Assembly (NCBI GenBank): GCA_965261545.1
Contig: CBDHDF010000011.1
Location: 416,001 to 480,000 of the forward strand
Direction: 5' to 3'
Source of the DNA: Bdellovibrionales bacterium
GTDB taxonomy: Bacteria; Bdellovibrionota; Bdellovibrionia; Bdellovibrionales; UBA1609
DNA length: 64,000 bases
Shown here: positions 22,367 through 64,000 of the stretch, piece by piece
How the letters are laid out: each line of letters opens with the position of its first letter
Numbering within the stretch: the first letter of the stretch is position 1
Position numbers and translations under genes: made by a program
The notes under the pieces: generated by a model
Databases searched by the model: none
Told to the model about the DNA's origin: nothing
What the model saw: the letters and a program-made list of their open reading frames with translations, nothing else

Positions 22367-22382
22367 TGCGAAATCTATGCCA
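22367..22382 (-). promoter_or_regulatory. Sigma54 (-24/-12) promoter facing the transfer operon
   Basis: Minus strand TGGCATAGATTTCGCA, with GG and GC at consensus spacing; IHF-like TTTCAATGACTTA at 22400-22412. Confidence 0.65.
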
Positions 22383-22664: not shown

Positions 22665-24038
22665 TTGAGTGAAATATTGAAAGATCCATTAAAAAGCAAA
22701 GTCGTCAGTGTGCATGTTATAGAGGACAGCAAATTAGACTCTGAACTCATTCAAGATCTCATCAAAGTAGAACTAAGAAAGTGTGGATTGACCCCCAAGG
22801 TTTCAGCCACATTCAAAGAAAAAAGCTCTTATAGTGCTTTAAATCAAAATAACTATGATATTGTGGTTTTTGATATTGATCTAGATCGAAGAATGGCAGG
22901 GATTGACCTTCTTGGTATGTTTACTAAAAAGGTACAGTTTCCGATCATCTCCTCTTGCCGTGAGTCAGATGATATCGTAAAAAAAGCTTACAGTCTAGGT
23001 TGTGAGCACTTTTTAAACAAGCCTATCAAGCAGTCAAAGATTGCCCATCTGGTCGATCAATATACAAAGCAAATAAACTCCAAGAGCATCTTGCGAGTTA
23101 TAAAATCAAGATACATGACCCAAGATGAAGAGACCCTCAGTGAGCTTAATAAAGTCACTTCATCGAAAAATGCTCATTTATTTGGACCCACAGGGGTAGG
23201 CAAACAAATCGTCGCTGAACTTATTCATCATATACATTATGGCAACTCAAACCCCTTTGTTGAAAAGAACTGTTCATCTATCACAGAGTCTCTTGCGGAG
23301 TCCTTCCTTTTCGGCCATGAAAAGGGAGCCTTCACAGGTGCCAACAACCAAAGAAAGGGTATCTTTGAGCTTGCCAAGGGAGGCACCGTCTTCTTAGATG
23401 AAATCGATAAGACATCAAAGTCTTTTCAAGCCAAGTTATTAAAAGTTATAGAGAAAAAGGAAATTCAAAGGGTTGGATCTGAAAAATCAACACCTGTTGA
23501 CTTCTCGCTGGTCACAGCAAGTAGTACAGACCTTAATTTCCTTGTGGAAAACGATAAATTCTTACCTGATCTTTGGGAAAGGCTTCAGGTGGAGGTCATT
23601 CACTTGAAACCTCTGAAAGAACGTCCCTTGGATATAGAGCTACAAATGCAGAATTTCATTAGGCTTCATGAGTCAGGAAGACTGTTTGTCATCTCTGAAG
23701 AAGCCCATAAGTTTTTGATGAGTTACCACTGGCCAGGAAATACAAGGGAATTAAAAAACGTTGTGGACAGCTTACAAAGGAAGAATATCAAGATTCTTGA
23801 ACTCAAAGACCTTAAATTCTTACAAAAAAAATCCATCAGACAGCAATATGGCCTCGTCAATCAACAAATACTTCAGGCCATGGAACAAAATGGACTCAAA
23901 AATGTCGTCAATCAAATATGCCGGGAAGCAGTTCATCATTTTTTCACTCAAAATGATGGGAAAAGAAGAATCACAATGAGGCAGCTTGAAATTAGCTCAG
24001 ATACTTTATACAGACACTTAAAAGAAAATATGGGGTAA
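22665..24038 (+). CDS. Sigma54-dependent response regulator (NtrC-type: REC-AAA+-HTH)
   Basis: REC (VIED, VVFDIDL, FLNKP); GPTGVGKQ; FGHEKGAFTGA; FLDEI; WPGNTREL; C-terminal HTH (TLYRHLK). Confidence 0.93.
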   Translation: MSEILKDPLKSKVVSVHVIEDSKLDSELIQDLIKVELRKCGLTPKVSATFKEKSSYSALNQNNYDIVVFDIDLDRRMAGIDLLGMFTKKVQFPIISSCRESDDIVKKAYSLGCEHFLNKPIKQSKIAHLVDQYTKQINSKSILRVIKSRYMTQDEETLSELNKVTSSKNAHLFGPTGVGKQIVAELIHHIHYGNSNPFVEKNCSSITESLAESFLFGHEKGAFTGANNQRKGIFELAKGGTVFLDEIDKTSKSFQAKLLKVIEKKEIQRVGSEKSTPVDFSLVTASSTDLNFLVENDKFLPDLWERLQVEVIHLKPLKERPLDIELQMQNFIRLHESGRLFVISEEAHKFLMSYHWPGNTRELKNVVDSLQRKNIKILELKDLKFLQKKSIRQQYGLVNQQILQAMEQNGLKNVVNQICREAVHHFFTQNDGKRRITMRQLEISSDTLYRHLKENMG

Positions 24039-24041
24039 AAA

Positions 24042-24260
24042 ATGAATTTAACAAAAGAAGAAATAAAGCACGATTTGAAAAGAAATATAAGTTCTATTTT
24101 ATCTGGAACAACAATGATAATGAATAAGATTCCTAAGATAGATATTTATATTCGAGAAACAATAGAAGAAATAGAAAAGCAATGTGAACAAACATTTAAA
24201 CTGTTAGACATTTTCACGGAAAGTAAAGATGAAAATAAGAAAAAGCCAAAGGAGGTATAA
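24042..24260 (+). CDS. Stand-alone HisKA/DHp-like small protein
   Basis: IKHDLKRNISSI resembles an H-box, followed by a helical hairpin; no ATPase domain. Confidence 0.55.
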   Translation: MNLTKEEIKHDLKRNISSILSGTTMIMNKIPKIDIYIRETIEEIEKQCEQTFKLLDIFTESKDENKKKPKEV

Positions 24261-24261
24261 A

Positions 24262-24582
24262 ATGAGAAAAATATGGACCATACTTGTTGCTATGCTCGGA
24301 ATGTCGAGTAATGCATCTTCCGCATACTCTGGTTGCTATGATGAAGCCATGGAAGTTTCAACAGAAAGCAACCTTGAAGTGAGTCTAGAACAAAGTGCAG
24401 AAGAAGATTTTGATGAACTTGATAGAATCATGGATTTATACCCACATGCTAGTATTGATGAAAAAGTTGGAATGAGCTTTAAAGCACATAGAATAGCGGA
24501 TCGTCTTGAGCGTCAAGGTTTTGATGTTGCTGATTCTATGTCTCAATCATCAAGAACATGTGACTATTGTGTGAAACCATAA
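24262..24582 (+). CDS. Small secreted protein, candidate YcaO substrate / signal precursor (106 aa)
   Basis: GGAGG RBS before ATG 24262; signal peptide MRKIWTILVAMLGMSSNASSA; acidic body; tail SMSQSSRTCDYCVKP. Confidence 0.6.
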   Translation: MRKIWTILVAMLGMSSNASSAYSGCYDEAMEVSTESNLEVSLEQSAEEDFDELDRIMDLYPHASIDEKVGMSFKAHRIADRLERQGFDVADSMSQSSRTCDYCVKP

Positions 24583-24627
24583 CATTCAATCATTATTGAT
24601 GGCATAAGAAAGGATATAAATTCAAGA

Positions 24628-26184
24628 ATGAAAAATAAATTTATTTATATTATTTTATTTATATTCATTATTGTTATAACTTATAGTTTCATTCGTGAGC
24701 AAAGGAATAAGTCAATGTTGATTCAGACAAATTTAATAAGTTTTGAACCAGAAGACACAATGGACCCCACAAGACTCAGGTTTGTCCAAGAATATTTTGT
24801 GCTTGATAACGTCACGGCAAAGCTCACTCAAGTGGGAGACGATGGTGAATATAAAAATGATCTTGCTGAGCATATTAGTTTCTCTGATGATAAACTCACC
24901 ATAGATGTTCAATTAAAGAATGATGCTAGATTTAGTGATGGAAGCCCTATTTTAGCTCAAGATGTGGCTCAATCATTCAAAAGATCCATATTATGGGGAG
25001 TGCCCCATATTGATCTAAAAAATCTTTGGATAGGAGCCGATCAGCTTAAATCTATAAATGAAGATATACCAGGCATTGAGGTTTTATCCAACAAAGAGTT
25101 GCGACTCAAGCTTATCAAACCCACTAAAGAAGTTCTTTTTTTTCTCACAATAACCGACCTTGCCATACTCCATAAGAGTCAATATACAAAGACTCATTTA
25201 AAAGTTTCTGACTGGGAAAGAGTAACTTCTGGTGCTTATAGAATAGGCTACACCAATGAAGGTAGAGTCATGCTCATTTCTAATAAGAGTTCTCATAATT
25301 TTAAAGAGGCCATGCCTCAGAAAGTCGTTTTCAATGGGTATAAGAACGCCAATGTGATTCGACAAATTGAAGAAAAGAGCTTGGACTTTGGAATGTTGAC
25401 TCTCAGTGAATATTTTCCTAATGTAGAAAAAATTGAATCCTCCAAGGATTTTGATATTGTGAGCAATAAGACAGATGGTGTCGTTCATATTGTTCTCAAT
25501 GCCGCATCAGGGCCATTTGAAAATATTGAGAATCGTCAATGGATCCAGAAAAAAATGATGGAAACCTACAAAATTGATGAAAAAGACTCTTCTGTTTTAA
25601 CCAAAGCTCTTCAGTTTTTTCTCCCAAACTCCAAGGGTCATAAAGATGGTGCTGACGTTCTAAGCATTCTCAAAGACATTAATACTTCAAATATTCCTGA
25701 AGAATTAAAAAAAGGAATCACCATAAAAACTCTAGAAGGAATGAAGTATTTTTTACCGGATAATATGGAAATAAAATTATCTCAAACCTTAGGCATTCCA
25801 GTAAATTTGGAAATCAATATTCCAAAAAAAGAGTATTTTCAATCCATTGACAAAGAAAGAACTTTTGATGCCACTATTATGGCTATCTCCATGGACTATA
25901 AAGTTCTCAATGAGGCTCTCAATCTTCAATATTTATCTGAAAATAGTCCCCTTATCGATCCCACAGGGAAAATAAAAGAACTTCTTAAGTCCTATCAAGG
26001 TGAAGATGATCTTGAGAAAGAAAGTGAAATCATTAATAAGATATTGAATCAAATGATTTACGATTCAGAATCAATTCCCATTTTTTATTTTGCATCCCCA
26101 TTTCTTATAAAAAAAGATACCATTCAAAGCTCAAGTGTGAATTTTCATGAACCCATTAAATTTCACAAAATGGTGATGAAATGA
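24628..26184 (+). CDS. Family-5 (OppA/DppA-like) solute-binding protein, membrane-anchored
   Basis: DLAE...S.D..T....LK..ARFSDGSPILA.DV..SF, SGAYRI, C-terminal IPIFY; no permease or ABC ATPase nearby. Confidence 0.85.
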   Translation: MKNKFIYIILFIFIIVITYSFIREQRNKSMLIQTNLISFEPEDTMDPTRLRFVQEYFVLDNVTAKLTQVGDDGEYKNDLAEHISFSDDKLTIDVQLKNDARFSDGSPILAQDVAQSFKRSILWGVPHIDLKNLWIGADQLKSINEDIPGIEVLSNKELRLKLIKPTKEVLFFLTITDLAILHKSQYTKTHLKVSDWERVTSGAYRIGYTNEGRVMLISNKSSHNFKEAMPQKVVFNGYKNANVIRQIEEKSLDFGMLTLSEYFPNVEKIESSKDFDIVSNKTDGVVHIVLNAASGPFENIENRQWIQKKMMETYKIDEKDSSVLTKALQFFLPNSKGHKDGADVLSILKDINTSNIPEELKKGITIKTLEGMKYFLPDNMEIKLSQTLGIPVNLEINIPKKEYFQSIDKERTFDATIMAISMDYKVLNEALNLQYLSENSPLIDPTGKIKELLKSYQGEDDLEKESEIINKILNQMIYDSESIPIFYFASPFLIKKDTIQSSSVNFHEPIKFHKMVMK

Positions 26185-27191
26185 AGCACGCTCAATCCTT
26201 AAATATTTTAAAGAATGTAATAAATTATTTTCAATCACTACCAGATCATCAATTAAAAGTGAAGGATATTAGTTCCGAGCATTTTACTCTTCCTTGCATG
26301 TTCTCTGTATCTGTTAACCACCGAGGAAATCAAATGCAAGGGTTCGGTCAATCTGAATCTAAAGATAAGGCTATTTTTATTGCTTTTATGGAAATTATTG
26401 AAAGAATCCTAATACCAAAGCCTAAAGACTTGACCTACTCACAGAAATATCTTTTTTTCTCTATCAGAAAAAATTATGAGGATCTTTTAAAGTCATTTCC
26501 TAGATCGAGAAATTGGGTTGAAGGCTCTTCCAATGGTTTTGCCATTCATTCGAGTAGAAAAATGGCTCAAAAATCAGCTCTTGACGAACTTATTGAGCGG
26601 CATGTTGTACTTAAAGCTCTTGTTTCTCAGTTTTCTCCGGCCAAGGTGTTAGCACCTAAAATACTTACCCATGGGAGCTATGTGATTCCCTCCGAGATGA
26701 CCTATGAGTTTTATGCTTGGTTAGGACCTTTGGGCAGACATGTGGTTCTTTTTAAATGCCAGATGAATTCAAAGGTGATCTATGGGTTTGGATGTGAGAA
26801 GAGTCTAGAAAGAGCCAAGGAGAAGGCTTTTTTTGAAGCTAGCTCTAGGATTATCGCACTCCACCGATCTCAGAATCCTTCCTTTGTAGTTCTCAATACG
26901 AGTAAAAATTTCCTTTATCATTGGTATGAGGAGACTGCCTGGACAGGAGGGTTTCTTAAAAAAGCCTCCCATGACATGCCCTCTATAGATCACCACCTTT
27001 CATACAGTGATTTTTGGTTTGGTGAACCTCCAAAAAATGAATTTCTCCACCAACTGGGCCTCCATGTGGTCAAGGCTGTTTCCCCAAAGATTCAGCCTCT
27101 CTTTGCAGGACACTGGAAGGCCAAATATATGAACCCCGAAGCTCTAGGGAATGACTACAGCTTTCCAGAAGACATGCATATGATTGGGTAA
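26181..27191 (+). CDS. YcaO-family protein (stand-alone, short)
   Basis: GFGQS..K..AIFIAFMEIIER, SSNGFAIH....AQKSALDELIERH, GFGCE...RAKEKAFFEA, VVKAVSP; ATGA overlap with the SBP gene. Confidence 0.85.
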   Translation: MKHAQSLNILKNVINYFQSLPDHQLKVKDISSEHFTLPCMFSVSVNHRGNQMQGFGQSESKDKAIFIAFMEIIERILIPKPKDLTYSQKYLFFSIRKNYEDLLKSFPRSRNWVEGSSNGFAIHSSRKMAQKSALDELIERHVVLKALVSQFSPAKVLAPKILTHGSYVIPSEMTYEFYAWLGPLGRHVVLFKCQMNSKVIYGFGCEKSLERAKEKAFFEASSRIIALHRSQNPSFVVLNTSKNFLYHWYEETAWTGGFLKKASHDMPSIDHHLSYSDFWFGEPPKNEFLHQLGLHVVKAVSPKIQPLFAGHWKAKYMNPEALGNDYSFPEDMHMIG

Positions 27192-27197
27192 ATTGAT

Positions 27198-28946
27198 ATG
27201 AAAAATCGATCCATACGAATCTCTATTTTATTGGCAGCCACCATGAGTCTTTTGGCTCTTGCCACTGTGATGCTGATATTCTTATCAAAGCACGAGGTGG
27301 AAAGAATTCAAGCCAATACTCAATCCCTGGTGCGTGAGCAAATAGAACTCACAGTTAAGAAATTAGATATCTATAGAGTGGTCAATCAAATATCATATAT
27401 TCTCAATATCACTTTCAATCTGGATCGTGTGAATGGAGTCAATATCTTTGATTCCAAATGCAACTTAGTGGATAAGCAACCTGTTAATTTTAAAATCCCA
27501 TGGGACTGTAAGAGCCCTCACCCTGATTCTATGGTTCTTTATAAATCTCAAACCTCGATTTCTGACTCTTCAGGAGCCCCCAAATATATATTGGCTCGCC
27601 TCAAAGATGAGCCCCATATTCTCTTGAATCACCATAGCTTGAAGGTTCTCGTCATATCATTAGTTTTGATTCTTATCACTTTACTTTGCTTGAACTTTTT
27701 AATGAAAAAACATATTCTAAGGCCCATTGACGATTTGGTAAGAATCATTAGAAAACCTGGCGCCCTTGAGAGGAATAGTCAGAAACAAAAAAAGCTCCCC
27801 TTGGAACTAAGAGAAATTTATAATGATGTTTTGTCTCGTGACGAAATCATCCAGCAGAATAAAATTGAACTACTCAAAAGAAATGAAATGGAAACACGAA
27901 GCCATTTAAGTGAGCAAGTCGCCCATGATATCAGGTCACCCATTATGATTCTTAGAGACTACCACTTAAATCACTTAAATTTACATAGAAACGAGGATAC
28001 AAAAGAAAGCGTATACCTCAATGCCATTAACGATCTGGACCTCCTCACCAAGCAATTGATTGAAGACTCTAGTGAGTATGCAAAAAATGTCAATCTCGTG
28101 GGCTTAATGGATGCCCTCGTCGACATGAAAGAAGTTGAATTTCAACAAGGGCCTAAATCTAAGATATTGTTGAATCCTCAGTCTAAGAATTTGAAGATTA
28201 AAACCAATCCCACAAAATTAAAATTTGTTCTTTCCAATATTATCAACAATGCAAGGGAGGCTTCTAAGCATGATGATCCTTGTGAGATTCAAATCAAGTT
28301 GACAAGAGGGGGGCCAGACGCCTTCATTGAAATTGAAGATAACGGGAAAGGTATCAAAAAATCAGACCTCAAGAGAGTTTTTTCCCGAGGGGTGAGCATA
28401 GACAAGCCTGGAGGCAACGGCTGGGGACTTAGTGATGCTAAAAAATTTATTGAAAGCCAAGATGGGACCATCGAGATAGATTCAGAACTCGACAAGGGAA
28501 CCACTGTTAGAATAAAGCTCCCCATATTTCTCTCAAATTTTCAATCTCGTGGGCAGGCTCCCTTTGACCATGTTTTGGTGGAAGACTACAAGCTCAGCCA
28601 ACTTCTATGGCTTGGAAAGGCCGATAGCAAGAAGCTCAACTTTGCAGCCTTCTCCTCACCCTCAGAATTTTTAGAGAATATGGAACTGGTGAGTCCCAAT
28701 GCCACCTTGTATATCGACTCTCACTTTCCCGATTTTCCCATGCGTGGCGAAGAATGGGCCAAGGAGCTTTACAATAAGCACGGATTCAAAGAAATATATA
28801 TGTGCTCTACATCCTCCATCGACATCACCGACATGCCATGGGTCAGAGGGTGCGTTGCCAAGCATAAGCCTTTTGAGATTGTCACTACAACCTCTGTTTC
28901 TTTAACATCTCATGTAAAGAAAACGTTCCCGTGGAGTACCCTATGA
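27198..28946 (+). CDS. Membrane sensor histidine kinase with C-terminal receiver-like domain
   Basis: Two TMs; QVAHDIRSP H-box; NIINNA.EA; IEDNGKGI; GNGWGL; SELDKGTTV; REC-like tail (VLVED, LYIDS). Confidence 0.92.
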   Translation: MKNRSIRISILLAATMSLLALATVMLIFLSKHEVERIQANTQSLVREQIELTVKKLDIYRVVNQISYILNITFNLDRVNGVNIFDSKCNLVDKQPVNFKIPWDCKSPHPDSMVLYKSQTSISDSSGAPKYILARLKDEPHILLNHHSLKVLVISLVLILITLLCLNFLMKKHILRPIDDLVRIIRKPGALERNSQKQKKLPLELREIYNDVLSRDEIIQQNKIELLKRNEMETRSHLSEQVAHDIRSPIMILRDYHLNHLNLHRNEDTKESVYLNAINDLDLLTKQLIEDSSEYAKNVNLVGLMDALVDMKEVEFQQGPKSKILLNPQSKNLKIKTNPTKLKFVLSNIINNAREASKHDDPCEIQIKLTRGGPDAFIEIEDNGKGIKKSDLKRVFSRGVSIDKPGGNGWGLSDAKKFIESQDGTIEIDSELDKGTTVRIKLPIFLSNFQSRGQAPFDHVLVEDYKLSQLLWLGKADSKKLNFAAFSSPSEFLENMELVSPNATLYIDSHFPDFPMRGEEWAKELYNKHGFKEIYMCSTSSIDITDMPWVRGCVAKHKPFEIVTTTSVSLTSHVKKTFPWSTL

Positions 28947-42071: not shown

Positions 42072-42240
42072 CTTCCCACAAAGTGCTGTTGCATCACTTA
42101 AAAATCCGGTTTTTTGGTCTGGAAATGAGGTCCATCTTACCTTAGCCCTTGATTTAGTGGGGACCCAGAGGCTATAAACCAACCACAATTCGTTTAAAAA
42201 ACCTCCATTTTTTTTGGAGTTCCAGACATAGGGGACGCAG

Positions 42241-46513: not shown

Positions 46514-46522
46514 TAAGAATTC

Positions 46523-46618
46523 CAGCAATTCCCGCCGAGATTTTTCCGACTTTGCTTTGAGGAAAAATCTGTGAGTGATAGAGGCTTATTTTAAGAATTT
46601 CTAGATTTTAGTCTTTAC
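46523..46618 (-). mobile_element. Partial MITE copy (one end of the 55064-55229 element)
   Basis: Starts CAGCAATTCCCGCCGAGA; reverse complement aligns with about 55135-55229. Confidence 0.85.
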
Positions 46619-46650
46619 CCCCGATGGTGGGTTTGATCCGCACATCGGGG
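46619..46650. terminator. Hairpin between convergent hamB and Avs-like genes
   Basis: CCCCGATG...CATCGGGG stem; no clear U-tract. Confidence 0.4.
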
Positions 46651-46652
46651 AT

Positions 46653-50756: not shown

Positions 50757-50771
50757 TCTTAACGAATCTCC

Positions 50772-51104
50772 TCACTTTCGGGTTAGACTAAAGATACTCT
50801 CAATTTCTAATATTTTCTTAAAGAATATCTTTTTTTCTAACTTCTTTTCAATTTGATTTGGGTTAAAAAGAAGATCAACGAATATGATTGGATGAGATTT
50901 TTTCTCAAAGGAATCAATGTCTTTTTCTGGACATAAACCAAATTTAACTAATTTTTTAATGTCTCCCAAATCTCCTTTTTTTCGTGAGGGCTCTAACTGG
51001 AGTTCCCCAAAGAAGGTGGAGGGTTTTTTAAGCGAATTTTGCTTAATTTTGTAGTTGATCTCATGGGGTGGTTGCCCCCTGGTAACGAAAACTATAGGCC
51101 CCAT
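50772..51104 (-). CDS. Hypothetical protein
   Basis: 110-aa ORF between the kinase remnant and the Avs-like gene. Confidence 0.4.
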   Translation of the reverse strand: MGPIVFVTRGQPPHEINYKIKQNSLKKPSTFFGELQLEPSRKKGDLGDIKKLVKFGLCPEKDIDSFEKKSHPIIFVDLLFNPNQIEKKLEKKIFFKKILEIESIFSLTRK

Positions 51105-51116
51105 GCATCATAAACC

Positions 51117-51519
51117 CTAAATCAAAACACAAACCCAAGCTCCAGGGGCATCTTTCTGATTACCAAAAGTCATCTTACCACCCCATGATTCGATGTCCAG
51201 CTTTGCTGTGTAAAGACCTAGGCCGTGGCCACCTTTTTTTCCGTAGGTGAAGCCTTGGGCACCTATGGGGGAGGGCTTGGTCGCTGAAGCCTGGGCCTTC
51301 GTCTGTGATGCATATGGAAATGGAGTTGTCTTGCTTTTTCATATGGATTTTAATCTCGCCTATGTGATTGTTGTGGTCTATCTCACCTATATGGTCTCTG
51401 TGGCCGTGATCTTTGTGGCTGCTATGGTTGTTGTGGCCACTATAACTGCTGTGGCTGTTATGATTTTTGGAGCTTGAGTGGGAGTCCGGATGGGAGGGGC
51501 TCAGGCTCATGGCTTCAAT
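51117..51519 (-). pseudogene. Histidine kinase HATPase remnant, paralog of 60837-61274
   Basis: Nucleotide similarity from IEAMSLSPS to the stop codon; 2-bp deletion near 51270; 5' part missing. Confidence 0.88.
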
Positions 51520-52450
51520 TTTAAAATTTCGTTCTGATAGGTCCCCATTATTACCACTCAGCTGCCAATAACGCATTGGTCAGAAATTATTGATGATGAG
51601 GTACTGGCAGATACTATCATCTTTCGAGTCGCTAAGCAGAGCATCTGTGAATTGGTTGTTGGAGTCAAGCCACGAAGAATTTGCTTCGTGGCTACCTCTT
51701 GAAAGGTCCATCTCCAATAGTGGCAGCAATACGGTTCATGAGTGTTTTTTGGAATAAATCATATTTGCTTTCTTCCCAAATTATATGATTGTACTGACGT
51801 GTATCAAAGTGAATTTTTTCTAATACATCCTTTCGACAAGTAAATATCACGGGCTTATGATGAGGTCGGTCACAGACGGCTGAGTACTGCCAATAGCGTT
51901 GGGTTAAGCAATAGATCAGGACATTGAGATGTAAGTAAAAGGTAACCTACTGCTATTTGGTTGGGTATACAATCCTCCTGGAAGTTTTGGAAATAAGGAT
52001 TTGTAGCAATTATTTCCAAGATTGGACTCCCTTCTTTCAACACATGTGGATTGAGGCTTCTATACCAATTAAAAAATATGTTCATTGCCTTAGTGGTTTC
52101 TTCAAACACTAATTGGTAGGTCCTCATTGTAGTAAGGATACGGATTGCACACTCTTCCCTACTAAATTCACAAGTGTCATTATGGTCCTTATCAGCATGC
52201 TTGGGAATAGGAAGGATAAAAGGTCTTTTTTAGAAATTCGCAAGGCATACCAGTAAAAACTGCAGAGGCCAGCAAAGACTCCAATAGGATTTTTGGACTT
52301 AGTTGGTGGTTTGGAGTGGTGTTGGGCAAAGTTTGAGGAGAAGAATGGGGCCAGAAAAATATGTTGTTTTATGGTGTTGAGACGTACCTCTCCATGGACA
52401 TAGAGGGAGCAGATGATACAGCTCTATGCGTCATTTAGGGTAGTCAGAAG

Positions 52451-53951
52451 TTAAGAAAATGAATCGAAGCTCTCACTTTGTGGTGGGCCTCTAGGAGGCC
52501 ATAGGCTTGGAGGTTGTGAGGTGATGCCGAGATGAGTAAGAATTTTTTCAATGACCTGAGGGTCTTCAATGGAAGAAATGACTTTTATTTTTCCACCACA
52601 CTCATGGCAAGTTTCAATGTCTATATCAAAGACCCTTCTGAGCCTTTGAGCCCAGGTCATTCCTGAAGATTTTTTCTTGTTTGGCCTTGGCTCTGAATCT
52701 TCTAAATCTAAGGTTTCTTCCCTTGAGTTTTCATCGATGGAGGCTTCGATTTGGGGTTGAGGGACGATTGAGGATCGATATTTAAAGTTGGGTGCGAAAA
52801 CTCCGTGGAATCTTGTGAGATTCACTCGTGGTCGAGGGATGAGGGAGGCAAGACGGCTAAGGAAATCAAGGGGGTCCAGAACGATATGAGTGGTTCCATT
52901 GTCATAGGCGGTTTTGAGTTTATAGACGACTTGGCCCCTGGCATTTAATGAAAGCCTTTCTTCACTGAGACTGGGTCTTGAAATATACCGGCATACCCTC
53001 TCTCGCTTTTTTCTCTCATGGGCTCTACATGCGACTCCTCCATGGAGGCTAAAGCTAGAATATTTGGCAAGAAATTCACTGTTAAAATCTTTACCTCTTG
53101 GTGATACAGTGTGAAGAGTCAGTGCTTTTTTCCCTTTGTGGGGACCGAGAGCTATTCTGTAGGTGACTGATGATCCGTGGACTTGGTCCATACTGTCAGA
53201 GGCTTCCATAGCCAGATACTCTTGCCCTGTTTCATCCCTTAAGATGAGTCCCTTTTTTTCTAGGTGCTTGACCACTCTATGAGCTATGCTCACCAAGACG
53301 TGATCCATTTCACTTTGGGTGGGCGAGGTTACGGGATGAAAATGAGGTTTGCCTTCGGGGAATGTGTACACTCCATCCAAATACATCATATGGAAATGAA
53401 TATTGAGGTTGATGCTTCCTCCAAAGCGTTGAATGAAGGTGACAGAGCCTGTCTTGGCTCCTGATTTTTTGGTGAGGCCAGCTTTTGATCAGGTAGGTGG
53501 AAATGGCTCGATGAACGATGGCTAAGACCTCTCCCATGACCTTTGGATTTTTGGCAAAAAGGAATCTTATTTGAAAAGGAAAGCTAAGGACCCATTGTCG
53601 TAGGGGTTTTTGGGGAAAAACTTCATCAACTAAGTGGGCTGCACTTTCAGCCATTCTTCTTGAGCCGCAGCTTGGGCAGAAGCCTCGACGCTTGCAGCTA
53701 AAGGCCACAAGCCTTTCATGGTGGCAAGATTCGCACTGGGTTCTCAAGAAACCATGGGCAAGAATTCCACACTTGAGAAACTCGAATTCTTTTTTAACGA
53801 ACTGGGGAAGACCATTTTCATGCTCATTTTCTATGTGCCGGTAGAAAGTGAGTAGATTTTCTTGAACCAATTTGTAAAGAAGAGTCTTTTCAGGGCGGTG
53901 TCGTTGATATTTGGGAGCGTTGTTAAAGACATGGGGATCAACAAGGGCCAT
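52451..53951 (-). pseudogene. IS91-family (Y2/HUH) transposase, frameshifted near 53485
   Basis: CGILAHGFLR..C..C, SCKRRGFCPSCG, RQWVLSFP; second frame has HFH/LDGVY, CRYISRP, TRFHGVFAPN, WAQRLRRVF. Confidence 0.88.
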
Positions 53952-53966
53952 GGCCTTTGTTGGAAG

Positions 53967-53981
53967 GCAAGTTCAATGCCA
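53967..53981 (-). promoter_or_regulatory. Sigma54 (-24/-12) promoter upstream of the IS91 transposase
   Basis: Minus strand TGGCATTGAACTTGC, near-consensus, 15 bp from the ATG. Confidence 0.6.
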
Positions 53982-54061
53982 ACTGTGGGTGAGTTATCAA
54001 AAAAAACTTCTGGGAGAAGCCTATGAAGCTATGGAAGACACAGTCTGCATATCGGTTGGAT

Positions 54062-54678
54062 TGGTGGACGCTCCCAACCGATATGCAGAATCCGACCTCA
54101 ATTCTGAACTATCAATAGAATCAACCACTTGTATAACTTCTCCCTCCATCTCGGCGACCATGCTCAAGGAAAAATATCTTAAAAATCAGCTCTCCATGAG
54201 GGCCATTTCCAAAGAGCTTGCGTGCTCAAGAACACATATCAGGGACCTACTTGTTAGGTATAATATCCCCCTCAGAAAATCATATGCACACCCCCGTTCC
54301 ATTTATGGCAAGAAGAAAATTGGCGGTAAACTGATTGACCACAAAATTGAGATAAAAACAGCAGCCACCATCAAAAGCATGTATGAAGACGAGGACCTTC
54401 GCCCCACAGCCATTGCAAGACTTCTCAATATCATGAAAGTGCCCACAAGAAAGCAGGGCAAAGGCTGGCACCACGACATGGTCATCACCATCCTCAAGAG
54501 AGAGGGGATTTACAAGCAAACTCGGACGGGAGGACAAACAAGAGGCACATTGAAAACAAAATCAAGAACGAAATCAAAAAACAAAGAGAAAATATCAACA
54601 ACAACTGGCTCCCCCCATAGTCTCGATGGGCATGGGGACCTAACAAAAGGAGAGCAAAATGAATACAGACATCGTTAA
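54062..54678 (+). CDS. HTH plus recombinase-domain protein, copy 2 (start uncertain)
   Basis: Paralog of 41227-41874; the listed upstream extension from 53911 lies in IS91 sequence. Confidence 0.65.
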
Positions 54679-56645: not shown

Positions 56646-59600
56646 TCAAGGAGATTGAGGGTTTGTGGGGTTCGCAGGATTGCTGACATCGATGACGAAG
56701 ACGTCGATATCGGTGCGGCGTGCTTCGGGGAGGCGATCGATCAGCAATTCTTGGAGTCTACCGGGAGTCTTGGGCTGCTCGATGTCATCGGGGTGCCTCT
56801 TCAATTTCTTTTGGGGTAGTACATTTTCTCCAAACCAGAGAACAATATAGACGCCACGGCCTTCTGCACGCCAATCCCGTGTATAGTTTTCGAGTTGGTC
56901 GTTGGCGGCGTTCCATACGTTGGGATGCCACTGCCCCTTGATTTCGGCCGGCAATCCAATGTTATTGCATATCGCAGCGATGTCTACCCGTTTTTGATTG
57001 GGCATATGCATTTCCGGTTCGAATCGGATGGACTCTGGCAATTGCTGCAAAATACATTCGATCATTCTATTGCGGCAGAAGTTTTCGTCCTGCGGTTCGT
57101 CTTTATCTTTCCAGTAAACTTCCCATATATCGGTATTGCTGCCTTGAATTCGTTCTTGGAGTTCTTCCAATCGATCCGCAAAGTAAGATCGCATGTCATC
57201 GATCGTCTCGGGCAAATCGTCCTTCATTACAGCTTGGAGTTCCTTGATCTTGGGCGGAACATAATCGTGGTCTCGCTGGACTCTGTGTTGGAGTGCCAAC
57301 GCATGTTTCAAGCAATTGATGTAGCTTGGAGCGTGGTTATCAATTAACCTTTGTAATGCTTCGGTTGCTTCGGACTGAGGGTGGCCAGCGATGGCGTCGA
57401 TTGCGTCTTGGATGAATTCTGTTGCGTCCCAAGGATTCAGGTTGTCCGGTGTAACTGTAACTGAATTTGACTGGTTGGTTAATGACCACGTTGTACCGAA
57501 GTTCTCGACAATGAAGGCTAATTGGTTTACAGAAAATCTATTGAAGTGGGCATCTCTTCTTTCCGGTGAGACCCGATCACGTATGAACCAAAGAAAGTCT
57601 TGATGGTCTTCTGCCGCTTTTTTAAGTAATGTGCGGTATTTATCGAAGTCAATGTCATAGCCCGCCGACAACCATAGGAGCCTCTCTCTGACTACACCAC
57701 AGCCACTCAATCTAGGGTCGACGGCGCTCGTCGCTAATGGGGAGTTTACCATGATGCGGTCACTTACCAAGTTACGTACTATTTTCAGTTGGGTCTCGTC
57801 GCTCCGGAGGGCACATATAAGTAGGGTCTCCTGGTTGGAGAGGGGCATTGCTTGGTAGCGAGATAGCCAATCGACAGCAAGTCGCCTCGCTAAGTTAGTA
57901 AGGTGAGAGTTATTAGTAAGTCGATATAACTCATTGATATGTTCAGAACCGCATTCAAGTTGAGGTTCAATGCTTGTACAAAAGTGTGTTTCCCAGTCGG
58001 ATTCTTTTTGGAATAGCACCCTTTCAATCTCCTCACTAATATTGTTTCCCATGGTGCTGAAAGTGAACTGTTGCAAAGCCAAAGCCATGTAGGTTGCAAA
58101 AAGCGTGTCTCGATTTACTGCATCAAGTGAATGATTACGGCGAAGCATCTCGGCGACACCGCAGATCATCGGGATTGTGGCATTATCAGACTTGTTATCG
58201 CAGTAAAGTTCAGCAATCTTCGAGGAACTCGGCAGGTCGTCACGTTCAAGCACGCTGATAAAGCCTAACATCACTCGTTCGCCGAGTTCTTCACCGAGAA
58301 AATCATGCATTCGGCTTTCTGGGGATGTGTTAGGGTCAAAAAGTTCATGCCCATTCAAACATGCGTGGTCCAAATAGACGAAGGCCGGTTTAGAAAGAGT
58401 GTAGATATCAACGGTGTCAATATCACTCACCTGCGCTGCAAGATTGTTGCAGTGCTGTTGAAAAACTTGGTCTCGTTTTGCTTTCCTCTCTACTTTTTGC
58501 TCCTTTTGCATGGTTTTCCACTCTGGCTCAGAAACAGGAATATTTATCAATTCATCGAGAATAGTCACTAATTTCTCATTGCCGTTTGCCACCTCTATGG
58601 CAGCTTTGTACACGACAGGCGCAAGGCCATTTTCGGTTTGTCCGAATTGCAAAAGATTGCGCCACATATCCGGGTCAATCGCCCCATTGTCTACACGAGT
58701 TCGCAAGGTTGGTAGAAGATCCGCAATATCTTTGGAATTTGGAAACAAATCCAGACCAGTACTGGGGAGGCGACATACCTTTTTCACAAAATTGTCTGCA
58801 CAGGAAGTCAAACATATATGTTTTTGAAGTGCTTGACGGAGTGCTTTATTGTCGCAGAATATTGAAGCTAACATTTTAACCATGTCACTGCAGTAGTCAA
58901 GGTCTCCGTTCCTCCACACAATCCATGACCATATGCGGCTGGGTTTAATCGTCGAATCAGCTGTGAGAATTTGAGCCATAAGGTAACTCAGAATGTCTAC
59001 GATGAATTGGCGTTTTGATGAATATTTGTTGTCATCGAATAGCGGCTTTGCATGCTTCGCTATGCCGTCAAGCAATGTGGGGAGTTGATTGGTGTTAAAG
59101 TTTTGGAAGACACTGTTAAGTAGGTGCTGAGGTTTGTACGATGCTGATGTGGCATTCGGATTATCCACAAACTTAGCATAATTGATAATAATGTCAATGA
59201 TAATCCTAAGAGACAGTGTGGATGCTTTAATATCAGCGAGGATATCGCCTGCTAACTGTGCAGAATCGGAGTCATTCAGGTTGAGGAGGCTGTTAACTAT
59301 TTCTTCCTGTTTTTTTTGATCAATATTAGTGTGGAGCGCCTTCCAGGCGTACAATCGCGAGTGAAAAGTGCGAGTCTGGTCGAGCATTATATTTTTGAGT
59401 GTCTGCACTAGTTCTTTTTCTTTCGCCAGTTTGGTCCCAGCCATCGCTTCGAGTAGGAGTTCGTTGAACTGCGTGGAGCATTTAGGCGCAATTTCCGAAA
59501 GAATCTCCTCTCGAAGCTCCGACCTCATCAGACCAGAGGCAGAATGCCTACCCCAGCCTTCCAATTTAAAATAGGAGTCTTGCTCGAAAAGTTTTTTGAG

Positions 59601-60761
59601 TCCAAAGAAGAGGGTTCTTGCTTGGCTAAGCTCAAGCCTCTCTGTATCGCCATAGAGTAGAACAGCGTAGGGATCAGCGTCGATGCAACGGCCGGCCAGC
59701 GCACTGCTGAAATGTGCCATCCATGCGTTCAGGCCACGTAGCGAGGTCGGTACACCTTCGTTTTGACGGAAGAGGTTGAATATTCGTTTTTGGGAGAGGC
59801 CATCATCAAAGCAACGTGCAAGCCATTTGGCACCGAGAAACTCTGCGATCACACGGTGAATATGTGAAAATTTGCATTCACTTTGACTTTGAAACAGGCG
59901 AGTTTTAAGCACATCATTTGCCGCTTTGCTGCGCGGAAGTTCTTTGATATCTGATATGTGCAGGAAGCCATCGGGCACATCTGAGTAGGGACCTGTGTAA
60001 ACGCCAGCGCAGTCACATAACAGCTGCATTGCACAGATTGCACCGGTGGCTAAGAGAAGTTCTTCTTTGTTCGTCATTACATGGGGATCTTCGTGATGGT
60101 ACTGATTTTCTTCTTTGAGCATGACACCACAAGCACTATCGAAGAGTTGGGCACGGGTGTTCGGGAGCGGATCTGAATTTTGTGCGACCTCGCCGAGCAT
60201 TCGTAGGGTTAGGGGATTTCCGTAGAGGGCCTCTATCCCACAATGCTCAAGGTGATTCAGGAGAACTTCAGCATCAATCTTCGGAAAATCTAACGACAAG
60301 AAGGAGTACGCATTGTCACGGGTAAAGGGTTGCAGGTGAAGCAGCCTAGGGACTACACCGTAGTCGTCTTTGATCTTGACTCGATCTACAGTCAACCAGT
60401 CGGCCTCACGGCAAGAGAGAACAAATTTGGGGTAGTTCATTGCCGAAAGCTTTTCGAGTACTTTTTCGATCGCGCTGCCGGGCGCAGCAGAAGCAATCTC
60501 GTCAAGCCCATCTATAATAATGACTCTTTGACCTGCGGAGATCAAAGAATCGGGTTTGGGAGTACGGGTGAGTTTGTCAGCGGAGATATACTTCGCACCG
60601 GGTTGTTTACTGAGTGCCTTGGTGAGTACGGTTTTTCCCAGACCTGGGTCACCGAGAATCACAACTGGACAATCAAATTCTCCGATTTTGTCTTGTTCTA
60701 GGGTTGTCCTCTCACACTCAGGGCCATCGTAGGCAAGTGTTCTCATAATTGGGGCGAGCAT
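56646..60761 (-). CDS. NACHT/STAND NTPase with C-terminal PD-(D/E)xK-like domain (probable defence protein)
   Basis: ILGDPGLGKT, IIDGLDE, LSCR, GNPL.L, HRVIAEFLGAKWL; C-terminal EPE...RVDI..AEIKGQWH..DQL. Confidence 0.75.
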   Translation of the reverse strand: MLAPIMRTLAYDGPECERTTLEQDKIGEFDCPVVILGDPGLGKTVLTKALSKQPGAKYISADKLTRTPKPDSLISAGQRVIIIDGLDEIASAAPGSAIEKVLEKLSAMNYPKFVLSCREADWLTVDRVKIKDDYGVVPRLLHLQPFTRDNAYSFLSLDFPKIDAEVLLNHLEHCGIEALYGNPLTLRMLGEVAQNSDPLPNTRAQLFDSACGVMLKEENQYHHEDPHVMTNKEELLLATGAICAMQLLCDCAGVYTGPYSDVPDGFLHISDIKELPRSKAANDVLKTRLFQSQSECKFSHIHRVIAEFLGAKWLARCFDDGLSQKRIFNLFRQNEGVPTSLRGLNAWMAHFSSALAGRCIDADPYAVLLYGDTERLELSQARTLFFGLKKLFEQDSYFKLEGWGRHSASGLMRSELREEILSEIAPKCSTQFNELLLEAMAGTKLAKEKELVQTLKNIMLDQTRTFHSRLYAWKALHTNIDQKKQEEIVNSLLNLNDSDSAQLAGDILADIKASTLSLRIIIDIIINYAKFVDNPNATSASYKPQHLLNSVFQNFNTNQLPTLLDGIAKHAKPLFDDNKYSSKRQFIVDILSYLMAQILTADSTIKPSRIWSWIVWRNGDLDYCSDMVKMLASIFCDNKALRQALQKHICLTSCADNFVKKVCRLPSTGLDLFPNSKDIADLLPTLRTRVDNGAIDPDMWRNLLQFGQTENGLAPVVYKAAIEVANGNEKLVTILDELINIPVSEPEWKTMQKEQKVERKAKRDQVFQQHCNNLAAQVSDIDTVDIYTLSKPAFVYLDHACLNGHELFDPNTSPESRMHDFLGEELGERVMLGFISVLERDDLPSSSKIAELYCDNKSDNATIPMICGVAEMLRRNHSLDAVNRDTLFATYMALALQQFTFSTMGNNISEEIERVLFQKESDWETHFCTSIEPQLECGSEHINELYRLTNNSHLTNLARRLAVDWLSRYQAMPLSNQETLLICALRSDETQLKIVRNLVSDRIMVNSPLATSAVDPRLSGCGVVRERLLWLSAGYDIDFDKYRTLLKKAAEDHQDFLWFIRDRVSPERRDAHFNRFSVNQLAFIVENFGTTWSLTNQSNSVTVTPDNLNPWDATEFIQDAIDAIAGHPQSEATEALQRLIDNHAPSYINCLKHALALQHRVQRDHDYVPPKIKELQAVMKDDLPETIDDMRSYFADRLEELQERIQGSNTDIWEVYWKDKDEPQDENFCRNRMIECILQQLPESIRFEPEMHMPNQKRVDIAAICNNIGLPAEIKGQWHPNVWNAANDQLENYTRDWRAEGRGVYIVLWFGENVLPQKKLKRHPDDIEQPKTPGRLQELLIDRLPEARRTDIDVFVIDVSNPANPTNPQSP

Positions 60762-60836: not shown

Positions 60837-62336
60837 TTAAATCACAACACAAACCCAAGCTCCATGGGCACCTTTCTGATTACCAAAAGTTATCTTACCA
60901 CCCCATGATTCAATGTCGAGTCTGGCTGTGTAAAGGCCTAGGCCATGGCCGCCTTTTTTTCCGTAGGTGAAGCCTTGAGTGCCTATGTGAGGGAGGGCTT
61001 TGTCGCTGAAACCTGGGCCTTCATCTGTGATGCATATGGAGATGGAGTTGTCTTGCTCTTTCATATGAATTTTAATCTCGCCTATTTGGTCTACCTCTCC
61101 TTCTTTTAGGCTTTTGTGACCTTTGTGGTGACTATGGTGGTTGGTGTGGTCGCTGTGGTCGTGGTCTTTGAGATTGATGTAGCTGTCATGGTCGCCATCG
61201 CTTCCGGAGCTTGATTGGGAGGGGAAGTTTGGACGAAGATCCGTACGGGAGGGACTCAAGCTCATAGCTTCAATAGCATTGTTTAAGATATTGGTGATGG
61301 CAGCCTTAAAATCTATGGGGTCCACTTCTTTTGTGTATGAAGAGGAGAAGGGGCAGGATTGAACTTCTGAGATGACAAGGTCCTGCTTTTGGGAGTTTTG
61401 AAATCGAATTTCAGAGGCGGCTTGCTCAACAAGATTGTAGAGGTTCACTTTGGCAAGTGGTTTGTTTTTCTTGTATTCAAGAGCCTTGGAAACAGATTCT
61501 TCAATCTCTTGTATGGAACCTCTTAGCATCTCTTCTTTTTCTTTGTCAAAGCTATTTCTTAGGAGAGGGAGGATAGTATTTATATTGCTTAGAGGTGTTT
61601 TAATATTGTGAAGCACCTTTTGGGAGATCTCATGGGAGACTTTTTCTCTTGTGCTTTCAGAAACCATCTTTTTCATCTCATCCAGAGCATGGGAAAGATT
61701 CTTGATGGATTTAAAGGATCCCTTAAACTCTTGAGGAACGTTTTTATCAATCTCTCCTTTTTTCAGGAGGCGATTGAGAAGTAAGATAAATCGGTCAAGG
61801 TATAGATTCATTCCAAGTAGTGTCAATACCGTGAGAGCGATGGCGAAGAGGAAGTTCAATGAGAAGACCATGAGAACCTGAGGTGTTCCTAGGGCTCCAA
61901 AGGAATCTAAGGCGAATGTGATCTGAACGAGAAGCCCTTTGTTGATAAAGATACAATAGGCATGTTGGCCACTACCTGATTTGTAATAGGAAGAGGGCAT
62001 GTTAGGATTGCAAATAAATTTTGTTCCTGTGTTGGAGGTGATTTCTTCTTTTGATATGAGGTCATAAAATAAGATGGATTTTATTTTGACGCCCTCGGAT
62101 AGCTCTTTACTAAGAAGCTGCTCCATGACTCTTCGGTAGTTGCCTTCGCCAACATCTCTGGACAAAAGGCTTAAGGCGAGTTCAGATTGAGAAAGAACTG
62201 ATTCTTTGAGCAAGTTCTTTCTTTGAATATGAATAATAAAAAGTGTAAAGGTCAGGTTCAAAATAATAGCTATAAGAATAATCAGAGCAATAAGTTTTTT
62301 CTTACTTAAAGAACTAGGCCACGGGATGAACTTCAC
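60837..62336 (-). CDS. Membrane sensor histidine kinase with a His-rich insertion
   Basis: Two TMs; KVLHNIKTPL H-box; NILNNAIEA; DEGPGF; GHGLGL; WGGKI. Confidence 0.92.
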   Translation of the reverse strand: MKFIPWPSSLSKKKLIALIILIAIILNLTFTLFIIHIQRKNLLKESVLSQSELALSLLSRDVGEGNYRRVMEQLLSKELSEGVKIKSILFYDLISKEEITSNTGTKFICNPNMPSSYYKSGSGQHAYCIFINKGLLVQITFALDSFGALGTPQVLMVFSLNFLFAIALTVLTLLGMNLYLDRFILLLNRLLKKGEIDKNVPQEFKGSFKSIKNLSHALDEMKKMVSESTREKVSHEISQKVLHNIKTPLSNINTILPLLRNSFDKEKEEMLRGSIQEIEESVSKALEYKKNKPLAKVNLYNLVEQAASEIRFQNSQKQDLVISEVQSCPFSSSYTKEVDPIDFKAAITNILNNAIEAMSLSPSRTDLRPNFPSQSSSGSDGDHDSYINLKDHDHSDHTNHHSHHKGHKSLKEGEVDQIGEIKIHMKEQDNSISICITDEGPGFSDKALPHIGTQGFTYGKKGGHGLGLYTARLDIESWGGKITFGNQKGAHGAWVCVVI

Positions 62337-63336
62337 CTTGCCTCCTTTCCATGATATCTTCTTTTAAAGATCCAGGTTGAAAAGGCCACATATTTTTCTT
62401 AGTCACTTGCACAGAGTAACCAGAAATTCTAAATTCTTTAAGGTGAAATATGTAAATATCGTCTATATGAAAATCACTGATTTTGTAGGTGCTTTTTTTG
62501 AGTTTGGAAAATCCTATTTTTTGAGTGGGAAAATAAGCATTTTGTTGTCTTTCTTCAAAAGCATAAAAATAAAAATGATCCACAAAATGAGTTACATTTT
62601 TAGATTTCCTTTGAGTCCTATCCTTCAATTTGTGAAATTCCCAATAAAATCTCCACGCTTCAAAGAACGCTTTTTCTAAGGATGAATAAATATTCTCATG
62701 ACAACCATATCCAAATATATTGTAAGGCACTTCATTTTGTGATATATGGCAACAAATGACAAAGAGTCCATAATCATTGGGGAGATGATAAAAATGAGAT
62801 TTGAGGTTATTCTTCATTCCTGAAAGAAGATTCAAAAGTCCCCATTTATAGATCCCAGTTATTTCTTGACACTCTTTCTTTCTGAGCCAAAAATCAAGAA
62901 CAACCTGTCTTTCAATGATCTCCCTGTAGGAGTTAAAAATGCCCATCAATGGATCCATGGAGAAACTTAGGCCATTGGAAGACTTTATTTGGTGTGTGTG
63001 GCTCTCAATTTTTTTAGAAAAATCAACCTTCAGCCCATTCATATTTTCATGAGAGATAGGTATTCTTTCAAAAAGTTCCCCAATACATCTCATTTGGGCT
63101 GTTTTTTGATTGTGCCCCTCACCAGTAGATTTGATGGTTTTTTTATTTATAAAAAGTTCACCCATATACCAGAAGAATGGTATAAGTGTTGGGCATCCAT
63201 TTGTATCTTTCATCTTTAATCGATCATCCTGAAGTAGGCAGTCAATGGATTTTTTAACGTCTGTGAAACGATATTTTTCCCCAAGTTTGTCTTTGGCGTC
63301 TGAGAAATGATTCTCTATGAGATGTGACACTCTCAT
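62314..63336 (-). CDS. YcaO-family protein (stand-alone), copy 2
   Basis: GEG...AQMRCIGELFER, SSNGLS...REIIERQ, GYGCH....LEKAFFEA, C-terminal HPVA. Confidence 0.83.
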   Translation of the reverse strand: MRVSHLIENHFSDAKDKLGEKYRFTDVKKSIDCLLQDDRLKMKDTNGCPTLIPFFWYMGELFINKKTIKSTGEGHNQKTAQMRCIGELFERIPISHENMNGLKVDFSKKIESHTHQIKSSNGLSFSMDPLMGIFNSYREIIERQVVLDFWLRKKECQEITGIYKWGLLNLLSGMKNNLKSHFYHLPNDYGLFVICCHISQNEVPYNIFGYGCHENIYSSLEKAFFEAWRFYWEFHKLKDRTQRKSKNVTHFVDHFYFYAFEERQQNAYFPTQKIGFSKLKKSTYKISDFHIDDIYIFHLKEFRISGYSVQVTKKNMWPFQPGSLKEDIMERRQGEVHPVA

Positions 63337-64000
63337 TCCTTATGCCAATCCCATAGGTTGAAGCTGCCATCAAAGTAATTCATCTCTTTGAGTTTATATT
63401 TACCTTTGGCACAGTAAACCATTCTTGTGTGCATGAGAGGCAAGATCATATAATTTTTTAGGAGCCCAAAATGAACCTCTTTAAGGAGGGAGATATATTT
63501 TGATCTATCGATTTCATTTTTTGACTTGTTTAAAAGTTCATTTAACTCTTTGTTGTCAGCGAAGAAGTTAAACAAAGGGTGATTGAATAAATAGATCATT
63601 TCCACAATGGGGTCCAAAGCGCTGACTCCAGAGTATATATACAAAAGGTCATATTCCTTTTTTTGTAAGAGGAGTGAATCACTCTTGGCATCTGAGAAAA
63701 TAATATTTAAATTCACACCAAAATCTTTGAGCTTCTCTTTTATCATAAAAGGTATAGGGCTTTCACCCATAATACTAAGGAGAAGTAAATTTATCTCCAA
63801 TTTCTCTTTTGTGGGCTGTGAATCATATAATTTTTCAATCTTTGATTCTTGAATTCTTGATATATTATTTTTTGTAAAAATTTGATCTGTTCTTTCTGCA
63901 ATTTCTTCATTGATTTTAGTATTTTTAAAGGCTTTCTTGATAAGAGAAAAAATATGTTTTCTTTTATCGTCAGTGTTCATTTTGTCAGAATTAACATTTG
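63333..64000 (-). CDS. Family-5 solute-binding protein, C-terminal part (runs off the window)
   Basis: YDLLY, D...R..LLKEVH..LL....ILPLMH; frame open to 64000; ATGA overlap with YcaO, as in copy 1. Confidence 0.7.
   Translation of the reverse strand, partial: NVNSDKMNTDDKRKHIFSLIKKAFKNTKINEEIAERTDQIFTKNNISRIQESKIEKLYDSQPTKEKLEINLLLLSIMGESPIPFMIKEKLKDFGVNLNIIFSDAKSDSLLLQKKEYDLLYIYSGVSALDPIVEMIYLFNHPLFNFFADNKELNELLNKSKNEIDRSKYISLLKEVHFGLLKNYMILPLMHTRMVYCAKGKYKLKEMNYFDGSFNLWDWHKE

Follow-up and report, generated by a model that had tools for sequence, protein, structure and literature searches.

A YcaO, solute-binding protein and kinase cassette on Bdellovibrionales conjugative elements: separate subfamilies of a candidate modified-peptide signalling system

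Introduction

A 64,000-nucleotide stretch of the genome of a Bdellovibrionales bacterium (assembly GCA_965261545.1, contig CBDHDF010000011.1, positions 416,001 to 480,000), here called the window, ends within a gene cassette, B, that encodes a solute-binding protein (SBP), a YcaO enzyme and a membrane histidine kinase; a second set of such genes, part of cassette A, lies at 24628-28946. The locus raises the question of what the cassette does and whether one signalling locus has A and B as its alternative alleles, as a first-pass annotation supposed by analogy with agr or arbitrium groups. Judged by their divergence, A and B are old separate subfamilies on different, tandemly integrated elements. 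The function that we propose, and that we think somewhat likelier to be right than wrong, is that a modified-peptide signal, read by the SBP-kinase pair, gates conjugation through a sigma54 activator.

Genes of cassette B

Numbering above 64000 extends the window frame past the window end, and a position on contig C11 equals the window frame + 416000. The cassette comprises the following genes (ORF, open reading frame; aa, amino acids).

60837..62336, minus strand: kinase B, membrane histidine kinase, 499 aa (ORF list, Pfam HATPase_c)
62314..63336, minus strand: YcaO B, standalone, 340 aa (Pfam YcaO)
63333..64000 (ORF 63998-63333), minus strand: 3' part of SBP B, orphan family-5 solute-binding protein; the whole gene encodes 504 aa and starts at 64847, beyond the window
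64844-65131, minus strand, beyond the window end: candidate precursor B, 95 aa, with signal peptide, Cys pair and C-terminal core ..RPVTVCLDEK
65178-66758, minus strand, beyond the window end: activator B, receiver-AAA+ sigma54 activator, 526 aa, GAFTGA intact

The gene order is that of 24628-28946, as the first-pass annotation had it, and the ATGA overlap of SBP and YcaO is seen at both the A and B junctions; the reading frames of precursor B and SBP B also overlap by ATGA. The small secreted ORF, sigma54 activator and divergent type IV secretion system (T4SS) operon that were predicted upstream are all found past 64000, so that an objection from the absence of precursor-like and regulator genes fails. 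Nor does an intact Opp transporter account for SBP B: no permease adjoins it, none of the 11 permease matches in the genome lies near any cassette, and the two Opp-type operons of the genome have SBPs of their own.

Kinase B has two transmembrane helices, a periplasmic alpha/beta domain of ~115 aa (five strands), H243 and N/G boxes, and a disordered His-rich insert at 365-412. It terminates after the ATPase domain and, as had been noted, lacks a receiver domain, while kinase A has a long tail. A fold search with full-length kinase B was filled by matches to the ATPase domain. Prediction of a complex between SBP B (33-504) and the kinase B sensor domain (38-153), for which no folded controls were included, gave run scores of 0.65, 0.01 and 0.00 and is counted neither way. 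A contig assembled from a sequencing run is identical to window-frame 59000-65562 with zero differences, a match that is not independent because the run is possibly that of the source sample.

The YcaO enzyme and the candidate precursor

YcaO B scores 49 bits against Pfam YcaO (cut-off 25.7), and its model has a pLDDT of 95; the Foldseek matches listed to rank 36 are all YcaO-family structures, with E values to 3.5e-12. Conserved residues of YcaO B are E87/E90/R91, S120-N-G, E139/E142/R143, E226 and H337, among which the three ATP-binding motifs are taken to lie. E87, R91, G122, E139, E142 and R143 are kept in 105/105 annotated family loci, E90 in 102/105 and E226 in 99/105; the possession of three ATP-binding motifs by YcaO enzymes is described in PMC8120280. 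The C-termini of YcaO B (EVHPVA) and YcaO A (DMHMIG) both lack PxP, which occurs in 49/105 of the family, and the C-terminal His is kept in 101/105.

One Pro is invariant in the seven B-clade precursors, with Thr or Cys at P+2 in 7/7 and Cys, Ser or Thr at P+4 in 5/7. YcaO divergence follows that of the precursor leader region (t=5.0, collinear). In three pairs (L074/L075, L057/L105 and L088/L098) no large gene has diverged further than YcaO (about 90%; tied with the kinase in L057/L105), the activator and SBP being 97-100% identical and the core unchanged.

Distribution and composition of the cassette family

A YcaO profile of 60 rows matched 145/384 genomes of the bacterium's own order and 87/238 in the order to which a Bacteriovoracales record belongs, not all of which were inspected for a cassette. 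The 105 annotated loci comprise 4 from this genome, 2 and 19 from two other searches (a broken locus having been left out of the latter) and 40 high-ranking loci from each order scan, chosen from about 240 matches in the own order and 131 in the other, with a few at contig ends skipped. The set leans to close relatives because the profile held cassette YcaOs and selection was by rank. Among the 80 loci with enough flank, an SBP is present in 75, a kinase in 77, both in 74, a small upstream ORF in 75 and an activator in 47, with no match to a permease profile built from two permeases of this genome. The inference that the genes are not clustered by chance is thereby upheld, an SBP being encoded beside a kinase without a transporter in 74/80. 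In the long loci (n=51; kin not independent) T4SS or sigma-like genes occur in 22/30 with an activator and in 0/21 without.

A hydrophobic N-terminal segment is found in 87/90 small upstream ORFs (near-duplicates are included; two ORFs were removed as masked or wrongly picked, and one was chosen by hand), and Cys lies within the last 15 residues in 77/90, as against 2/97 in an SBP control; Cys content is 7.5% in the last 15 aa vs 0.9% mid-protein. In 18/32 loci the 700 bp upstream of the activator contain a strict sigma54 site, where 0.4 per strand is expected; in 11 it points toward the activator and in 9 away, 2 having both. A long C-terminal tail is present in 44/75 scorable family kinases.

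The B subfamily is rare: its SBP profile matches 6/401 genomes of the phylum at E<=1e-60, apparently all already in the model. No relative was found in a metagenome scan, and a plasmid collection gave two weak YcaO matches only. Some loci depart from the common order. Two diverged tandem SBPs stand behind a single precursor in the B-clade loci L061:10491-13447 (minus) and L062:6472-9446 (plus), and perhaps read a second dialect; an A-clade precursor (L042:6936-7250, minus) has two repeated cores, SSDTQPCEVCM and SSFDTQPCVGCV; and YcaO has no adjacent SBP at L087, L099, L116, L092, L054 and L055, the order in L087 and L099 being activator-YcaO-kinase directly.

The genome itself holds seven cassettes in five versions (A, B, B', C1/C2 and C3). 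Four are YcaO cassettes (A, A', B and B'; A and A' 93-100% identical) and three, C1, C2 and C3, have a radical-SAM/SPASM enzyme within an activator-precursor-SBP-kinase unit. Their cores, DAWPKKK in C1 and C2 and DFLWP in C3, contain Trp and are Cys-free; C2 and C3 are broken by insertion sequences. Three further activator-kinase pairs (C10:77227-84243, C11:982993-990010 and C10:226421-232439; activators 43-46% identical to that of B) enclose a 1000-aa ankyrin-like lipoprotein in place of precursor, SBP and maturase, and conjugation-type genes adjoin them.

Cassettes A and B are not alleles of one locus

22665..28946, plus strand: cassette A, consisting of activator, 72-aa ORF, precursor (..SQSSRTCDYCVKP), SBP, YcaO and kinase with receiver tail

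A and B share the motifs SSNG..EIIER/ELIER and G.GC....EKAFFEA reported earlier, and otherwise similarity is low in every gene: global identity is 23% for SBP, 26% for YcaO, 28% for the kinase and 29% for the activator, and the two YcaOs give no mutual BLASTP match at E<=1e-4. The element genes are likewise diverged (VirB4 46%, FtsK 37% and relaxase 26% identical). The A-B distance is close to the family median in the YcaO, SBP and kinase trees, and the YcaO tree places A and B in different starred clades; an A+B+B' clade is rejected (AU p 4.7e-6; 30-row subset, quick tree, test run after the tree was seen). A sigma54-type site of cassette A at 22382 (minus) faces its own T4SS; it was missed by the strict pattern and caught by a looser one. 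The 72-aa ORF (24042-24260, plus), between activator A and precursor A, has an H-box-like stretch, KHDLKRNI, and no family match; absent from B, it is perhaps a free phosphotransfer or decoy domain.

The view of A and B as allelic forms of a single locus, comparable to agr groups I-IV, is therefore scarcely credible. It draws on the shared order and ATGA coupling and on the apparent ending of both elements at a common 7-bp core. As described in PMC13610699, agr groups differ only in agrB/D/C, while A and B are deeply diverged in every gene, the activator and T4SS genes about as much as the signal genes, and their recombinases give no mutual BLAST match. The strict form of the proposal is refuted at the sequence level, unless kinase B could phosphorylate activator A. 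Because every part is anciently diverged, A and B are likely insulated at every step, and the suggestion that co-resident elements signal independently remains plausible. Tree distances are correlated for YcaO-SBP (r 0.88), YcaO-kinase (0.81) and SBP-kinase (0.77), and imply co-inheritance only; the covariation of peptide tail and SBP across the family was non-significant.

Apparent allele-like exchange in closer pairs

An agr-like pattern, a conserved activator with swapped peptide and receptor, can be read clearly in two cases. C1 and C3 are 98% identical in the activator and 92% in the radical-SAM enzyme, vs 45% in the precursor, 57% in the SBP and 65% in the kinase; their synonymous divergence (pS) is 0.08 in the activator vs 0.54-0.76 in peptide, SBP and kinase, and divergence of the radical-SAM gene increases toward its 3' end, a contrast that points to a module swap. 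In L079/L081 the activator is 98% identical (pS 0.13) and the SBP 77% (pS 0.59), with cores GVICFGV vs GGICIEV. The activator pS is 0.36-0.38 in L045/L048/L050, with other genes up to 0.7 or more.

The pattern appears weak in B and its sister B', where identity is 86% for the activator, 80% for the kinase, 74% for YcaO, 64% for the SBP and 54% for the precursor, and the cores are PVTVC vs PTTFS, that of B' being Cys-free. In a post hoc and non-independent comparison, SBP minus YcaO identity is +7 to +24 points in six same-core pairs and -2 to -10 in B/B' and the L079 trio; the contrast is reversed in L045/L050 and L136/L139. Specificity groups are thus suggested by some pairs only.

Element B, its junctions and the tandem array

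66990-67004, plus strand, beyond the window end: sigma54-type site TGGCAAGAAACATGC, facing the sigma-like/T4SS genes
67199-83432, plus strand, beyond the window end: two sigma-region-4 ORFs and T4SS operon, divergent from cassette B
90026-91954, plus strand, beyond the window end: serine recombinase, overlapping tRNA-Ala
91917-91992, minus strand: tRNA-Ala, of which the core TGGTGGA (91917-91923) forms the last bases
54034..54101, no strand assigned: left junction of element B, with core TGGTGGA (54062-54068) flanked by two inverted arms matching the arm at the tRNA
51120..51387, minus strand: relic kinase, 3' remnant of another B-type kinase (91% nucleotide identity over 248 bp)
56646..60761, minus strand: EruA, NACHT antiphage protein (above the NCBIfam cut-off), cargo directly downstream of kinase B

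The sigma54-type site of B is also present at B', L038 and L061, and the genome has a sigma54 gene. The T4SS operon contains pilin-like and VirB3-like ORFs, VirB4, VirB9/B10-like genes, an FtsK-type ATPase and a MobC-like relaxase; a repeat-rich lipoprotein-like ORF, with many related copies in the genome, is inserted in it on the opposite strand at 72596-73864 (L001:18596-19864, minus). With a T4SS ATPase, relaxase, recombinase and att cores at a tRNA, all known from sequence, element B is by gene content a 38-kb integrative conjugative element (ICE), of about 54069-91916, at tRNA-Ala.

The TGGTGGA core occurs again at 41267. The recombinase of A runs across this core, from which we infer that element A ends there; both elements would then end at one shared 7-bp core. 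The region can be read as three tandem elements, namely A, a B-family relic, and B. The relic, between two TGGTGGA cores (41267-54068), holds an IS91-like transposase and the kinase remnant, and its recombinase-extension ORF is 76% identical to that at 53911-54678. A defence island spans 28931-60761 between kinases A and B, with Zorya-like genes (four), an AAA_13 ATPase, HamA and a helicase, a STAND-like 1367-aa protein and EruA. In most cassettes of the genome large, often defence-like cargo genes start right after the kinase stop, which suggests an insertion hotspot behind the kinase.

A proposed pathway and its alternatives

The genes and their linkage, the motifs, the promoter-like site, the ends of the elements and the mosaics are observed; the chemistry and signalling are proposed from them. 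YcaO with ATP, to judge by its motifs and fold, would modify Thr, Cys or Ser in the P-x-[T/C]-x-[C/S/T] core at the C-terminus of the 95-aa ORF, with azolines as the probable product. The ORF carries a signal peptide, and the product would exit via Sec and be trimmed by host proteases; Sec-exported heterocycle peptides of the RiPP class (peptides made by ribosomes and modified after translation) are known (PMC11626156). The linked, permease-less SBP would bind the product and act on the small periplasmic domain of the kinase, as LuxP acts on LuxQ and CBP on ChiS; SBPs that stimulate kinases and are encoded with signalling genes include the family-5 CBP (PMC8050422). The kinase would then set phosphorylation of the receiver-sigma54 activator, which would act at the sigma54 promoter at 66990 on the two sigma-like genes and the T4SS operon. 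The signal could switch transfer on or off, and in ICEBs1 and arbitrium a peptide signal represses transfer (PMC8055654). Finer specificity types may arise by swapping peptide and SBP, with or without maturase or kinase, under a conserved activator, as the mosaic of some pairs suggests.

Several findings weigh against this pathway. The product of YcaO B is uncertain because the enzyme lacks the C-terminal PxP that azoline-forming YcaOs carry (PMC7136475). Cassette B encodes neither a partner protein nor a dehydrogenase, a protease or an exporter of the outer membrane; its genes are all assigned otherwise than to an E1-like/ThiF partner or dehydrogenase, and the rest of the genome was not searched for partners. 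The tail Cys is missing in 13/90 small ORFs (some have Thr or Ser, a few are probably mis-picked). Since 21/51 long loci have neither activator nor any T4SS, the unit is not solely a conjugation switch. The B/B' SBP and YcaO pS of 0.65-0.66, vs 0.43-0.48, falls inside the T4SS gene range of 0.40-0.66, and several stretches of the SBP differ little or not at all; B and B' may for these reasons cross-react. Peptide-tail similarity did not track SBP conservation significantly (23 disjoint pairs, rho 0.23, p 0.30).

The lack of an exporter or protease also fits a loop private to the cell, in which the modified peptide is kept in the producer periplasm as a timer, element-presence flag or mating contact cue. 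Sec delivers to the periplasm only, where the SBP also resides, and most SBPs look inner-membrane anchored or soluble periplasmic, because a lipobox-like motif occurs in only 9/91. Such a loop would gain little from a dedicated maturase, fast-changing cores and module swaps, and a short trimmed core might itself cross the outer membrane; we consider it unlikely. A bufferin-like, periplasmic metal-binding RiPP, with SBP and kinase reading a metal-peptide complex or a host- or prey-derived ligand, is decidedly unlikely. Cys-heterocycle metallophores that leave by Sec are known (PMC11626156), SBP B has its best weak family matches among nickel or metallophore binders, and kinases B, B' and the relic share the His-rich insert; but six other B-clade kinases lack the insert, and the cores are short, variable and often have a single Cys, with none in B' or the radical-SAM cassettes.

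YcaO products are often antibacterial (PMC7136475), defence genes lie directly behind several kinases, and a swapped peptide and SBP would suit toxin-immunity logic too. The cassette as a bacteriocin or exclusion system, with immunity through sequestration by the SBP and autoregulation through the two-component pair, is nevertheless very improbable: a dehydrogenase, an exporter and any known immunity gene are absent, the sigma54 site of B is directed at the T4SS and away from the cassette, and a kinase accompanies the SBP in 74/80 loci. Very little credence can be given to a reading in which YcaO acts not on the small ORF but on the SBP, the kinase, a component of the T4SS or a protein of the host, and the ORF is an accessory periplasmic regulator. 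Some YcaOs are reported to modify proteins (PMC5589413, PMC13063428), and in pairs that keep their core YcaO changes fastest among the large genes; against this, Cys/Thr/Ser enrichment lies exactly at the small-ORF tail, core chemistry shifts with maturase type, and YcaO divergence follows the precursor leader.

Relation to known systems

The modified-peptide pathway, which we prefer, has precedents for each piece separately, in SBP-stimulated kinases, Sec-exported heterocycle RiPPs and peptide-controlled transfer. In Bacillus ComQXPA a precursor, maturase, kinase and regulator are likewise encoded in one locus. Staphylococcal agrBDCA (PMC13610699) similarly has a single locus for its precursor, a dedicated maturase, a membrane kinase and a response regulator, with specificity types that differ in a variable middle. 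The cassette differs from both in its YcaO or radical-SAM maturase, Sec signal peptide, separate SBP receptor, sigma54 activator, Gram-negative host and carriage by conjugative elements; cassette B has no AgrB/ComQ-type maturase or LytTR/LuxR-type regulator, Pfam and NCBIfam giving YcaO and a sigma54 activator. The likeness of the activator to LuxO, in its sigma54 activator output, is presumed from its NCBIfam name.

In Vibrio LuxP-LuxQ-LuxO and CBP-ChiS (PMC8050422), as proposed here, an SBP whose gene stands with signalling genes acts on a kinase. In the cassette, unlike these, the ligand would be a modified peptide encoded at the locus itself, there is a single small sensor domain, kinase B has no receiver and LuxU is absent.

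Rap-Phr and arbitrium peptides are unmodified and are read by RRNPP receptors, the intracellular TPR receptor being encoded beside the peptide gene; no TPR receptor gene lies within cassette B. ICEBs1 RapI-PhrI and phage arbitrium AimR-AimP resemble the cassette in that an element-encoded peptide governs horizontal transfer, and differ in Opp uptake and intracellular reading (PMC8055654), whereas a permease-less cassette would read a modified peptide outside the cytoplasm. RiPPs made with a standalone YcaO, among them bottromycin and linear azol(in)e peptides (PMC7136475), share the YcaO fold, ATP motifs and a Cys/Ser/Thr-bearing core; the cassette has no E1/ThiF/TfuA partner or dehydrogenase, no PxP in B, and adds a Sec signal and receptor-kinase coupling. 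Bufferins have a long Sec-signal precursor whose Cys is modified in the cytoplasm before export to the periplasm, and differ in an MNIO enzyme and copper binding, with no cognate SBP-kinase or conjugation link described (PMC11626156).

By gene content the cassette is outside agr/ComQXPA, Rap-Phr/arbitrium, Opp importers and linear azol(in)e clusters, and by analogy it would behave as agr or Rap-Phr would if given a receiver of the LuxPQ type. No description of it was found in the literature covered, including the available parts of PMC8939145 and PMC8120280; subscription journals and supplements were outside this coverage.

The broadest extension is tentative and has somewhat less than an even chance: that Bdellovibrionota share a widespread modular peptide language, with Sec-exported precursors, interchangeable RiPP enzymes and SBP-kinase reading, in which the private channels of stacked elements time their transfer and dialects arise by swaps of peptide-receptor blocks under a fixed sigma54 activator. 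The distant (A, B, C) and near (B/B', C1/C3) types held in this one genome provide a panel for the evolution of signal specificity among co-resident mobile elements. If the pathway is correct, a large set of standalone YcaOs would gain a function and matched substrates, and the cassette would be a Gram-negative modified-peptide pheromone system in which a binding protein and kinase read the signal, one that controls gene transfer and gives each mobile element sharing a cell a private signal of its own.

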